Shown here: in pieces, positions 43,861 to 57,053 of the stretch
Position numbering within the stretch: the first letter of the stretch is position 1
Layout of the letters: each line of letters starts with the position of its first letter
NCBI GenBank assembly: GCA_964346405.1
Contig: CAYFVL010000001.1
Location: 4,640-61,692, forward strand
DNA from: an uncultured Fibrobacterota bacterium
GTDB lineage: Bacteria > Fibrobacterota > Chitinivibrionia > Chitinivibrionales > CAYFVL01
Length of the DNA: 57,053 nt
Direction: 5' to 3'
Translations under genes and position numbers: made by a program
Notes under the pieces: model-generated
Databases searched by the model: none
What the model was told of the DNA's origin: nothing
The model's input: only the letters and a program-made list of their open reading frames with translations

Positions 43861-43934
43861 GGGCGCATGGCTCAGTTGGTTAGAGCGCCGCGTTCACATC
43901 GCGGAGATCGCTGGTTCGAGTCCAGCTGCGCCCA
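43861..43934 (+). tRNA. tRNA-Val (anticodon CAC)
   Basis: The cloverleaf folds by hand. The acceptor stem is GGGCGCA/TGCGCCC and the D arm is GCTC-AGTTGGTTA-GAGC. The anticodon arm is CCGCG-TTCACAT-CGCGG and the T arm is GCTGG-TTCGAGT-CCAGC. The discriminator is A and CCA is not encoded. Confidence 0.9.
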
Positions 43935-54432: not shown

Positions 54433-55970
54433 AAACGATTGAAGGACGTGATGACATTCTCAGGGCATTTTCCGGTCCGCCGACAGATGAATCACGCGCG
54501 ATAATCGGAGTACCCTCGGCCGTTTTTTATCCTGAAAACATCCGTGACATAGAAGCCGTGGTAGAGCAAGCCCTACTGGAACGCAAGGATATTACCATTC
54601 TGGGAGGACGCACCGGGATTACAGCCGGGAGCGCTCCGAATGAGGGCTCGTATGCGATTTCGTTTGAAAAGCTCAATCGCATACTTGAAGTAATCTCCGA
54701 TACCAATGGAATCATTCTGCGTTGCGAACCCGGCGTCACCATCGACCGAATCACGGATTTCTGCCGCTCTCCCGATGCAGCCGTACCGGGCGCCGACAGT
54801 CTCGAACCGGGCAAATGGTTCTACCCTCCCGATCCCACGGAAGCAACCGCCCAATTGGGGGGAACAGTCGCCACAAACGCTTCGGGCGCACGGTCGTTTC
54901 GGTTCGGGTCCACCAGAAACCACGTGGATTCACTCTCGGTATTGACCGTCGAAGGAGACCGGTTCGAGATCAGGCGAGGGAAGATCTTTTTTACCGATGA
55001 CTCGGTAACCCTTACAACCTCTTGCGGGAAAAACATAACGATACCCGCGCCCATTTATCGCACCCCCGTTTCTAAAGCAGTTTGTGGATATTATGCACGC
55101 GATGACATGGATCTTATCGATCTCTTCATCGGTTCAGAGGGAACACTGGGCATATTCCATGAAATTGAAATCCGTCTCTCTCCCTCACCACACTTCCTGG
55201 GTGGGTTGAGTTTTTTCCATACAAGTGAACATGCCTTTTCCTTTGCGGAATTTCTCCGTATCCAGGAACATGTGGCAGCCGTGGAGTTTTTCGATCAATC
55301 CGCACTTGCGTTTATGCGAACCCATATGGAGGAACAGCCGATATCTTTTCCCAGAATCCCCGACGAAGCCGGGGCTGCATTGTACTGGGAGTACATGGAT
55401 GCCGTCGAGACTCCTTTCGATGACGTCCTCGAGGCATGGGAAGATGCACTTCTGGCGAACGGTTCTTCGTTTGAGTCGACATGGAGTGGATTTGACACAT
55501 CAGAAATGAACAAACTGAAGGCGTTTCGCCACGCGATCCCTGAGTTGGTCAACCAGGTCACGGGTATGCGTAAACGCGAGATTCCTTCCCTTCGCAAGGT
55601 AGGAACGGATACCGCCGTTCCGTTGGAGAGTTTCCCCAAAGTGTATCGCGAGTATACCGACTTGCTCGATCAGTCGGGTATTGAATGGCTCGCTTTCGGG
55701 CACATCGGCGACTGCCACCTGCATTTCAACCTTCTCCCGGGAACGGACGAAGAATTGAACAGGGCTCTCCAGATTTACAAAAAGATGATGTACATAGCGA
55801 TTCGCGAAGACGGCTGCATTTCTGCGGAACATGGAATCGGAAAAATCAAAACCGACTATCTTCAGGAAATGGCGGGATCCGAGGCCATGGCTTCAATGAG
55901 GCGAATCAAGCGGGCGCTGGATCCGCGTTTTCGTCTCAATCGAGGAAACCTGTTTGCGCCCGACGAATGA
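54423..55970 (+). CDS. FAD-linked oxidase (GlcD / D-lactate dehydrogenase-like)
   Basis: The FAD_binding_4 pattern is ILGGRTGITAGS...GSEGTLGIFHEIEIRL. The C-terminal pattern is ISAEHGIGKIKTDYL...MRRIKRALDP. A TTG start overlaps the Nudix stop. Confidence 0.8.
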   Translation: MDVKTIEGRDDILRAFSGPPTDESRAIIGVPSAVFYPENIRDIEAVVEQALLERKDITILGGRTGITAGSAPNEGSYAISFEKLNRILEVISDTNGIILRCEPGVTIDRITDFCRSPDAAVPGADSLEPGKWFYPPDPTEATAQLGGTVATNASGARSFRFGSTRNHVDSLSVLTVEGDRFEIRRGKIFFTDDSVTLTTSCGKNITIPAPIYRTPVSKAVCGYYARDDMDLIDLFIGSEGTLGIFHEIEIRLSPSPHFLGGLSFFHTSEHAFSFAEFLRIQEHVAAVEFFDQSALAFMRTHMEEQPISFPRIPDEAGAALYWEYMDAVETPFDDVLEAWEDALLANGSSFESTWSGFDTSEMNKLKAFRHAIPELVNQVTGMRKREIPSLRKVGTDTAVPLESFPKVYREYTDLLDQSGIEWLAFGHIGDCHLHFNLLPGTDEELNRALQIYKKMMYIAIREDGCISAEHGIGKIKTDYLQEMAGSEAMASMRRIKRALDPRFRLNRGNLFAPDE

Positions 55971-56078
55971 TTTCAGCGTTTGCCGCCCAATCCGGCTGTG
56001 TTTCCGGCCATTCAACACCCATCAGGGCATAGCCCGGGTTTTCGCTTCCGGTTTGCGGTTTCTCAACCCGGCTTTTAT

Positions 56079-56094
56079 TGTCGAACTCGGGTCA
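56079..56094 (-). repeat. Arm-only copy g of the interspersed repeat (minus strand)
   Basis: The minus strand reads TGACCCGAGTTCGACAA, identical to the minus-strand reading of the 3' arm of copy c apart from the stop triplet (TGA here, TAG in c). Its TGA is the stop codon of the STAS gene. Similarity is lost after about 18 nt. Confidence 0.6.
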
Positions 56095-56466
56095 GGTATC
56101 GGGCAACTCATCCTCGTGCGAATAAACATCGATTATGCTGTCTATATTCATCTGCATGATAAGATCGAGAAGGTTTGCATTGGGTTCCAGAATGCACAGG
56201 TCTCCCCCGTGCTCGCGTACCATTTTGAAACAGTTTATCAAGACCGATACGGCTCCGCTGTACAGGTAGGATGAGTCGGTAAAACTTACCGCGATATTTT
56301 CGAATCCGCTCTTCAGGTATCCCGTGATGAGCGCGTTGAGTTCGGTAAGATCCGATATCACGTTCATTGGCGAGCGTATTTTGACAATACGATATTTACC
56401 ACGGTTGTACACCTCGATTTTTATTGACAATTCAGCACCCTTTTGTGATGAATCATTCGTGCTCAT
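56092..56466 (-). CDS. STAS-domain protein (anti-sigma-factor antagonist, SpoIIAA-like)
   Basis: I moved the start to Met90 of the ORF (MSTNDSSQKG...). The upstream part of the ORF runs through the repeat array. The STAS pattern is IVKIRSPMNVISDLTELNALI...IAVSFTDSSYLYSGAVSVLINCFKMVREHGGDLCIL. Confidence 0.7.
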   Translation of the reverse strand: MSTNDSSQKGAELSIKIEVYNRGKYRIVKIRSPMNVISDLTELNALITGYLKSGFENIAVSFTDSSYLYSGAVSVLINCFKMVREHGGDLCILEPNANLLDLIMQMNIDSIIDVYSHEDELPDT

Positions 56467-56614
56467 AATGCTTGAACCTCTTGTGAATGTAATTTGTCCA
56501 TAATAGTCCGGCCGGCCGGCCGGGGAGTCGGAGCCGTTGGTATTGTACCATGAGAAAAGGTATGATTCAAGTTGGACCTGAGTTGAGCGATTGTCACTGT
56601 GATTTTTTAGAGTT

Positions 56615-57053
56615 AGCCCTGAAGGGGCGCAACATAAATTGGTTTGCACGTGGCTCGTAATCGATTCGTCGCGATTCGGCGTGCAAAAACAAATATGTCC
56701 CGCCCCTTCAGGGCTGGGGAGATGGCGTGGCATTGTTTTACCCGGGCCTTCAGCCCGGGCTGGTATATCCCGCCCCTTCAGGGCTGGAGATGGCGGGGCA
56801 TTACCCTTCCTGGGCCTTCAGCCCAGGCTGGTATGTCCCGCCCCTTCAGGGCTGGTGGCGGCGCTTTCGAAATGGGCCTGAAGGGCCCTGACATACAAGC
56901 CTAGGCTGAAGGCCTGGGTAGAATCCCGGCAAAACGCAACCTCAGCCCTGAAGGGGCGCAACATAAATTGGTTTGCCCGTGGCGCGTAATCGATTCGTCG
57001 CGATTCGGCGTGCAAAAACAAATATGTCCCGCCCCTTCAGGGCTGGGGAGATG
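56615..57053. repeat. Composite repeat array with a 329-bp period, made of 13-15 nt mini-hairpins. It runs off the window end.
   Basis: The 110 nt at 56615-56724 recur at 56944-57053 with 2 mismatches. Ten hairpin units of the form stem(4-5 bp)-CTTCA-stem (or TGAAG on the other strand) occur at 56616, 56702, 56744, 56772, 56812, 56840, 56874, 56903, 56945 and 57031. Confidence 0.9.

Follow-up and report, generated by a model that had tools for sequence, protein, structure and literature searches.

A hairpin array upstream of a STAS gene in an uncultured Fibrobacterota bacterium: a probable REP-like repeat of the Acido-Lenti-1 type

A stretch of 57,053 nucleotides from an uncultured Fibrobacterota bacterium (contig CAYFVL010000001.1 of assembly GCA_964346405.1, the whole of which is referred to below as the window) ends in a dense array of small hairpins (56615..57053), which lies upstream of a gene encoding a STAS-domain protein. 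The question raised by this locus is whether such an array serves the neighbouring gene, acts as a structured RNA, or belongs to a repeated DNA element that also occurs elsewhere. An earlier note, made from the sequence alone, had described ten hairpins with an invariant loop and covarying stems, and had offered a protein recognition site, a repetitive extragenic palindrome (REP)- or REPIN-like element and a structured RNA module as possible readings. The second of these has been strengthened by the discovery of a multi-copy family in many phyla, which displays covarying stems, inverted doublets and alternating arrays and which flanks a Y1 transposase gene in other genomes. Repeats of this Acido-Lenti-1 or REP-like type have no earlier record in the lineage, and the array is probably a cluster, comparable to a bacterial interspersed mosaic element (BIME), of a Y1-associated REP-like repeated DNA element. 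Because the same units flank the gene of a small IS200-like single-strand-DNA transposase in other genomes, the repeat is of an ordinary selfish or domesticated kind and not a STAS-specific regulator.

The three-hairpin repeat unit

Reading of the window sequence over 55400-57053 confirmed all ten stem-CTTCA-stem hairpins, with the coordinates and strands that the earlier note had given, within 56616-57043. The pattern SSSS-CTTCA-SSSS has nine matches in the entire 57-kb window, all of them at 56616-57043, against 0.51 expected and a maximum of 2 in shuffled sequences, while the tenth hairpin, AGGC-TGAAG-GCCT at 56903, holds one A-T pair and was seen by eye. When the array was folded as single-stranded DNA, both strands proved much more stable than their shuffles, with z values of -12.2 and -12.1.

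The relatives of these hairpins were collected with an exact 18-mer of one hairpin class (hairpin A, CCGCCCCTTCAGGGCTGG), which matched more than 118 genome loci, and with a 19-mer of the other class (hairpin B), which matched 114 metagenome loci after a first metagenome pattern of 26 nt (B plus linker) had given no match. In the flanks of these loci a recurrent layout was found, in which about 22 variable nt separate hairpin A1 from hairpin B and a linker of about 12 nt separates hairpin B from hairpin A2, the whole covering 84-92 nt, about 88 in total. Hairpin A takes the form C-G-NNN-N / triloop / N-NNN-C-T and hairpin B the form ACC-YRGGGC / triloop / GCCCYRGG-CT, the latter elsewhere commonly being ACCCAGGGC-GTT-GCCCTGGGCT. 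The structure model derived from an alignment of 71 diverse units comprises three hairpins of 5, 8 and 5 pairs, each with a triloop. Columns without variation in it are the opening CG of each A hairpin, the first C of B, the closing GGCT of B and the closing CT of A2. The hairpin structure is under selection, because 13 of the 18 pairs have changed on both sides and none of 500 shuffles reaches the observed covariation score; the seeds of the alignment were chosen for intact stems, and the percentage of paired positions therefore follows from that choice, whereas the diversity of pair types does not.

This architecture alters part of the initial description. The exchange of the two stem strands (GCCC/GGGC versus GGGC/GCCC), which had been taken for covariation within one hairpin, is the difference between hairpin classes A and B of one larger unit. 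Covariation of the stems is massive across the family, and true compensatory change within the window is confined to hairpin B, where CCCGGGC/GCCCGGG stands against CCTGGGC/GCCCAGG. Similarly, the CTTCA loop is invariant in this organism only, with TTTCA, TTACA, CTTCG, CGTTG and others appearing elsewhere in the family, and it is better read as a loop-closing C.A position with a TTC triloop. In some genomes (L031 225-340, L114 6923-7038, L029, L107 and L079, under the numbers given to the retrieved loci) the loop of hairpin B harbors a nested insertion of 20-40 nt, itself a hairpin, e.g. CCCAGGGCGGCGCTTCGCGGCTTATCAGCCGCTTCGCTCTGCCCTGGG, and in L073 hairpin B is tandemly duplicated within minus-strand units.

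In terms of this unit, the window contains two overlapping units on the plus strand, one on the minus strand, the start of a fourth and one orphan hairpin. The orphan, an A hairpin reading GCCC-TGAAG-GGGC on the plus strand and assigned to the minus strand by sequence and pattern search (56616..56628), is the outermost element, and the array boundary was placed at 56614/56615, immediately outside its invariant CT, where a second contig (L004, described below) diverges from the window. The first copy of a head-to-head spacer follows at 56631..56699, an imperfect palindrome of about 70 nt, GGTTTGCACG ... CGTGCAAAAAC, which sits where other genomes carry about 21 nt or the Y1 gene. Unit 1 (56698..56788, plus strand) consists of A1 at 56702-56714, B at 56741-56759 and A2 at 56772-56784 and scores 79.3 bits (E 3.9e-19) with R1, the covariance model of the whole unit; unit 2 (56768..56856, plus strand), which was delimited by the repeat structure and the unit alignment, adds B at 56809-56827 and A2 at 56840-56852. 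The 68-nt tandem repeat nested inside the array, with 87% identity, arises because both units share the hairpin A at 56772-56784. The inverted unit 3 (56871..56961, minus strand; 52.4 bits, E 4e-12) is built of A2' at 56875-56887, B' at 56900-56918 with one mismatch and A1' at 56945-56957, and it is followed by the second spacer copy (56960..57028), which forms part of a higher-order repeat of 98% identity, and by the start of unit 4 (57027..57053, plus strand; partial match of 20.9 bits), whose A1 occupies 57031-57043 and which is cut at the window end. The period of 329 nt that had been reported for this higher-order repeat holds, 56615-56724 and 56944-57053 being 98% identical.

Relatives across phyla and a neighbouring Y1 gene

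At E <= 1e-3, R1 recognises 407 units (179 + 116 + 112) in 232 loci, all of which were fetched solely via the 18- or 19-nt hairpin word. By record titles these loci belong to at least nine phyla, namely Verrucomicrobiota, Planctomycetota, Acidobacteriota, Bacteroidota, Chloroflexota, Armatimonadota, Lentisphaerota, Desulfobacterota and Hydrogenedentes. Neighbouring units are arranged head-to-head in 71 pairs, with a gap of about 21 nt, tail-to-tail in 41 and in tandem in 17; alternating arrays reach 2.3 kb (L073), and a higher-order tandem repeat with a 302-nt period (L059) resembles the 329-nt repeat of the window. About 20 of 118 genome hits of the 18-mer were chance matches inside genes of Proteobacteria, Actinomycetes and others without an R1 unit, which served as an informal control. 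Three units of about 71-75 bits were also found on a contig binned as a metagenome-assembled genome (MAG) of Klebsiella pneumoniae (L005), a contig that is probably mis-binned, the family otherwise occurring in Verrucomicrobiota and similar phyla.

Part of this unit has already been filed under another name. A scan of the window against Rfam at the gathering level returned nothing but a transfer RNA gene (43861-43934), and a scan by E-value returned Acido-Lenti-1 (RF01687), with 36.1 bits for the B+A segment at 56741..56785 on the plus strand, 33.4 bits at 56809-56853 and 36.6 bits in the contig that spans the array; E is about 1.5e-6, and the best score falls less than 1 bit short of the gathering score of 37. 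The alignment covers model positions 1-46 of 46, corresponding to B plus A2, with a sole non-standard pair at the top of hairpin B, and the 8-bp hairpin, 12-nt linker, 5-bp triloop hairpin and 3' U of the family all recur. Both are thus two-hairpin modules with the same succession of 8-bp hairpin, linker GCU..UAU.., 5-bp triloop hairpin and terminal CU. They differ in that the model's hairpin B has a 4-nt loop whereas the array here has the C-TTC-A top, and in that the actual unit extends further, a third hairpin being placed about 22 nt upstream. The published seed holds the hairpin CGCCCCUUCAGGGCU verbatim, plus tandem copies 74-200 nt apart. The Rfam motif corresponds to the B+A part of the unit of about 88 nt. 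The original description of Acido-Lenti-1 records only its occurrence in Acidobacteria and Lentisphaerae, 'sometimes near group II introns', and assigns it no function (Weinberg et al. 2010, PMC2864571); a preprint of 2026 still terms it little known, Rfam files it as 'Gene; sRNA' (small RNA), and a full-text literature search with the hairpin sequences themselves matched no paper.

The family is linked to a transposase gene. All open reading frames (ORFs) within 4 kb of units were clustered, excluding those that run through units, and the top family was a 150-aa protein present in 9 loci at 4-187 nt from a unit. It matches Pfam PF01797 (Y1_Tnp) with E of about 1e-25, scores 67-69 bits with the NCBIfam IS200/IS605 model NF033573 (cut-off 55), and carries the HUH motif DHIHLL, the signature Y---Q--HH (YIANQAEHH, YIRKQPEHH) and a conserved C-terminal tail ERYVWD. 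The gene was located by tblastn in about 20 of 236 loci. For 10 of the 19 full-length cases, a minus-strand unit lies 4-30 nt before the start codon and a plus-strand unit 13-53 nt after the stop codon, the A1 ends of both facing inward toward the gene. The same layout emerged from a reverse look-up of eight homologues chosen by protein only, four of them about 80% identical to the Akkermansiaceae copy and four from Bacteroidota including the isolates Spirosoma, Nibrella and Aequorivita: all eight have a minus-strand unit upstream (6-101 nt) and a plus-strand unit downstream.

At many of these loci (e.g. L241 1406-1503) the upstream unit ends just 4-6 nt before the Y1 start codon, so that any ribosome-binding sequence would lie in or against hairpin A1, an arrangement suggesting that, as in IS200, translation of the transposase is under the control of this hairpin. 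The Y1 gene and its units are very often found within restriction-modification operons, between or beside hsdM, hsdS or hsdR, as was the case for six of the eight proteins looked up, and this context recurs in both Verrucomicrobiota-like and Bacteroidota genomes (L237-L244, L246, L247, L251-L253; also L059, L006, L112 and L159). HsdM, an Eco57I-type methylase, HsdS, RhuM and DUF1016 are the recurrent neighbour families of units. A 150-aa ORF of the window region itself (L248 1041-1493) was considered as a Y1 protein and rejected, having neither a Pfam nor a tblastn match.

Mobile repeat, RNA or host function

The layout around the Y1 gene is like that of REPtrons and TIRtrons. With the REP, BIME and REPIN elements and their REP-associated tyrosine transposases (RAYTs), as in the REPtrons of E. 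coli, Pseudomonas and Stenotrophomonas, the units have in common that they are short, GC-rich and palindromic extragenic sequences, that they form inverted doublets and alternating mosaic arrays, that inverted copies of them flank a Y1 HUH gene, that doublets lacking the gene far outnumber it, and that assemblies break at them. Many extragenic palindromic copies in inverted pairs or clusters were indeed found (the 407 units, with the array of the window being intergenic), and a Y1 HUH gene between inverted repeats was found in related loci only. The units differ from REPs in having three hairpins of 5-8 bp instead of one of 8-15 bp, and their protein differs from RAYTs in scoring as IS200-type in NCBIfam and in being accompanied by hairpin sequences that are conserved across phyla. 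The GTAG- and CGTC-tagged REP families were rejected as candidates on tag, stem length and stem composition, the published CGTC families having stems of 8-9 bp that start with A-T pairs, unlike these units.

TIRtrons, which take their name from terminal inverted repeats (TIRs) and whose gene products are TIRYT proteins (Di Nocera et al. 2013, PMC3733652), likewise consist of Y1 genes flanked by long inverted repeats, some of them 'double palindromic', whose copies also form singles, dimers and clusters, all of which applies to these units. They were reported in Koribacter versatilis and Rhodopirellula baltica (PMC3733652), both of which are also represented in the Acido-Lenti-1 seed; the comparison is by description, not by TIR sequence, and Di Nocera et al. 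draw no link to Rfam. The protein resembles TnpA-Y1 'subclass 1.2' (Quentin et al. 2018, PMC6006769) in the signature Y---Q--HH, the length of about 150 aa and the conserved C-terminal tail, an assignment by motif only. It differs from that subclass as described in that hairpin units consistently flank the genes here, and in that these genes were also seen in Verrucomicrobiota, Chloroflexota and probable Acidobacteriota. The class 3 Y1 proteins with a 'CnGA foot' from Planctomycetes and Acidobacteria were set aside, as the protein motif here fits subclass 1.2 instead. IS200/IS605 elements share the Y1 HUH transposase (PF01797, NF033573) and the hairpins beside the gene ends, yet their end hairpins have the same orientation on one strand and form no inverted repeats, whereas the flanking units here are inverted in the 10 of 19 forward and 8 of 8 reverse cases and vastly outnumber the gene. 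The gene-less inverted doublet with a centre of about 21 nt, the commonest form elsewhere, is thus the Y1 structure without its gene, a derivative comparable to a REPIN or a miniature inverted-repeat transposable element (MITE), and REPINs stand in that relation to REPtrons.

Evidence on the strand that folds was obtained from the A hairpins of loci retrieved via hairpin B, so that the search word had exerted no selection on hairpin A. At the loop-closing position, A1 and A2 have T..A in 102 cases, C..G in 48, C..A in 37 and T..G in none, against about 23 T..G expected under independence, and a larger alignment gave the same pattern. Read on the complementary strand, the combinations are U-A, C-G and U.G (or T.G), never C.A. 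Pairing, wobble included, is preserved on the strand opposite to that modelled by Rfam, since every loop-closing combination there is a standard or a G.T pair. The data as a whole suggest that Acido-Lenti-1 operates at the DNA level with the complement of the modelled strand as its pairing strand. The asymmetry is in keeping with a folded single strand being recognised, whether as single-stranded DNA by an HUH enzyme or as RNA, and by itself does not discriminate between the two.

A plausible course of events for a Y1-associated repeat would begin with hairpins forming on single-stranded DNA, mainly on the strand complementary to the Rfam orientation, where a Y1 enzyme acting in trans would recognise them. 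The enzyme may cut and rejoin beside the invariant CT after each hairpin, a site for which the breakpoint in L004, directly outside a CT, is the sole hint, and such cutting and rejoining would seed copies in intergenic DNA. Indirect evidence that the hairpins may be substrates of such an enzyme is provided by the strand-asymmetric pairing, the invariant CT and the L004 breakpoint. Local duplication, slippage or recombination could then build arrays, as in the 68-nt and 329-nt repeats, and any effect of the array on the adjoining genes, such as on a transcript end or through insulation, would be secondary.

Several observations weigh against this assignment. The earlier note had proposed to look for a RAYT or TnpA(REP)-type gene; in other genomes a Y1 HUH gene lies between inverted units, and tblastn did not find this gene in the 57-kb window, in the extra 7 kb of the spanning contig L001 or in L001-L004. 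Furthermore, the protein reaches only 19.3 bits with the RAYT model NF047646 (REP_Tyr_transpos; cut-off 80), which leaves an IS200-type rather than a RAYT score. No further R1 unit occurs in the 64 kb formed by the window and that extra 7 kb, and the GTAG (or CGTC) tag at the foot of REPs is absent, the feet of the units being C-G...C-T. The hairpin sequences are unusually conserved across phyla, while REPs normally co-diverge with their cognate RAYT; such conservation could instead be the mark of a conserved host factor or of a role as RNA. Lastly, the tolerance of G.U-type pairs on one strand is equally what a functional RNA would show.

The main alternative is that the array is a structured non-coding RNA, the Acido-Lenti-1 sRNA, with hairpins that would form within a transcript and either work in trans or affect neighbouring genes, perhaps the STAS mRNA. 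Near-threshold Rfam matches, the strong covariation and the one-sided G.U tolerance all speak for it, as does the position of the upstream unit at Y1 loci, which ends 4-13 nt before the start codon and therefore lies in the 5' untranslated region in the pairing-competent orientation. Against an RNA, both orientations occur in the same array and most units form inverted doublets; head-to-head gaps of 21 nt are too short for a promoter; single units between co-directional genes exhibit no orientation bias (11 sense and 10 antisense, counted by eye on rough ORF calls); and the pairing-competent strand is opposite to the one modelled by Rfam. Mobile DNA accounts better for the many dispersed copies and for the close linkage to a transposase gene. 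A further obstacle is a sigma-70-like promoter match, TTGAAT-17-TACAAT with TG (56542..56570, minus strand; a consensus match only, with coordinates converted from L001 7754-7782), which lies between the array and the STAS start codon. Because of this match, the array is probably not the STAS 5' leader that the earlier note had considered, and if that promoter is used, it is not the leader at all. Altogether, an RNA function appears unlikely.

Quite improbable, as an explanation in its own right, is a host role in which the array blocks transcription, stabilises 3' ends or insulates supercoiling between an upstream operon of the N-acetylmuramic acid (MurNAc)-recycling type, consisting of NamZ, nucleoside triphosphate (NTP) transferase and APH genes, and the STAS gene. 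Such roles have been proposed for REP and BIME elements, and this one would be compatible with the REP-like explanation as well as with the RNA reading. The array is intergenic, taking up about 540 of the 882 nt between the APH-family gene, the last of the NamZ, NTP-transferase and APH group, and the STAS gene, all co-directional, and this position together with its very stable folding would suit such a function. REPs have also been reported mostly downstream of genes (PMC3733652). On the other hand, terminator-like matches are no more frequent than in shuffles and no T-runs follow the hairpins. The arrangement of flanking genes at related loci is near random, with 49 co-directional, 18 convergent and 14 divergent cases on rough ORF calls and no clear bias. 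Greedy ORF calls were too noisy for intergenic position and orientation, half of the units falling in spurious ORFs made by the repeats themselves.

If these strands are taken together, a broader proposal arises whose prospects seem about evenly balanced: Acido-Lenti-1 would be, instead of primarily an RNA gene, a DNA repeat belonging to a REPtron-like system that spans phyla and is driven by 'subclass 1.2' IS200-like Y1 HUH proteins previously thought to be without cognate hairpins, with its functional strand opposite to Rfam's and a marked preference for type I restriction-modification operons, and the array here would be one BIME-like product in a Fibrobacterota-like genome. Novelty may lie in the link between family and transposase, in the larger unit, in the assignment of the strand and in the restriction-modification context, the TIRtrons of 2013 having been compared by description. 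If true, the proposal would define an orphan Rfam family, in concrete and testable terms, as the repeat on which a small HUH enzyme acts. Biology of the REP/RAYT type would then reach into Verrucomicrobiota, Planctomycetota, Acidobacteriota, Bacteroidota and others, gut Akkermansia among them, numerous natural hairpin variants would become available for studying how Y1 enzymes read DNA structure, and attention would be drawn to an association with type I restriction-modification operons that is so far unexplained.

The array in other assemblies and its surroundings

The array was found in five independent assemblies of the same organism (ENA ERZ922771, ERZ922774, NCBI GCA_963991655.1, JGI 3300012002 and Logan ERR2437276), the identical STAS protein being encoded on four other contigs and the neighbouring flavin adenine dinucleotide (FAD) oxidase on three. 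One contig, ENA ERZ922771 k127_1135294 (L001/L248), spans the whole array of about 540 nt (L001 7709 down to about 7169), beyond which unique DNA and the APH-family gene follow. As the earlier note had stated, the array continues past the window end, where in this contig it runs on for only about 115 nt: unit 4 extends through hairpin B (L001 7152-7229, 35.7 bits with R1) and the array then stops. The window, L002 (the NCBI MAG GCA_963991655.1), L003, L249 and L250 all end inside the array, and assemblers typically break off at repeats. The array is not an assembly chimera, because it is present in independent assemblies. The possibility of an assembly artefact or of a protein-coding repeat (PFRAG/SPEGAG peptides) deserves next to no credence: although five sequences (the window and four other contigs) break off within the array and a 159-aa ORF is called across it in L001, the artefact is already refuted by five independent assemblies and by the contig with unique DNA on both sides, and the ORFs, including that called 'gene', fall in several frames on both strands without a Pfam match, as expected of the repeat artefacts for which they had been taken, with conservation at base pairs rather than codons. 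The array explains the contig breaks here, the spurious PFRAG-type ORFs and the exotic look of the region upstream of STAS.

The copies of the array are not uniform among these assemblies. The 68-nt repeat is present three times in L001 versus twice in the window and L002. Several A hairpins of the spanning contig (L001 7400-7488 and 7152-7229) read GCCA-CTTCA-GGGC, a C-to-A change that disrupts a stem pair and where the window has the intact GCCC, which may reflect decay or strain variation of array members. In L004 (JGI 3300012009), identity with the window covers the STAS gene and the 148 nt upstream of it, through 56614, after which unrelated DNA follows, with the junction coinciding exactly with the outer CT of the first hairpin; the 117 unmatched nt (L004 1-117) found no match among the fetched loci. 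This contig represents either a strain without the array, or a rearrangement at the array, or a mis-join. With regard to the features expected of a DDE-type MITE, which are terminal inverted repeats and a target-site duplication, an inverted-pair structure is present, and the comparison with unoccupied sequence covered one boundary, through L004.

The STAS-domain gene lies outside the element (56092..56466, minus strand; 124 aa, PF01740), with its start codon 148 nt from the array. Between the two, at 56508-56523, the window carries a (CCGG)4 tract, of which L002 has one CCGG fewer and L004 a substitution. Judged by a single protein, the neighbouring FAD oxidase, the organism is probably Fibrobacterota-like, since the best named relatives of that oxidase are encoded by Chitinivibrionales and Chitinispirillaceae MAGs, with 46-49% identity.

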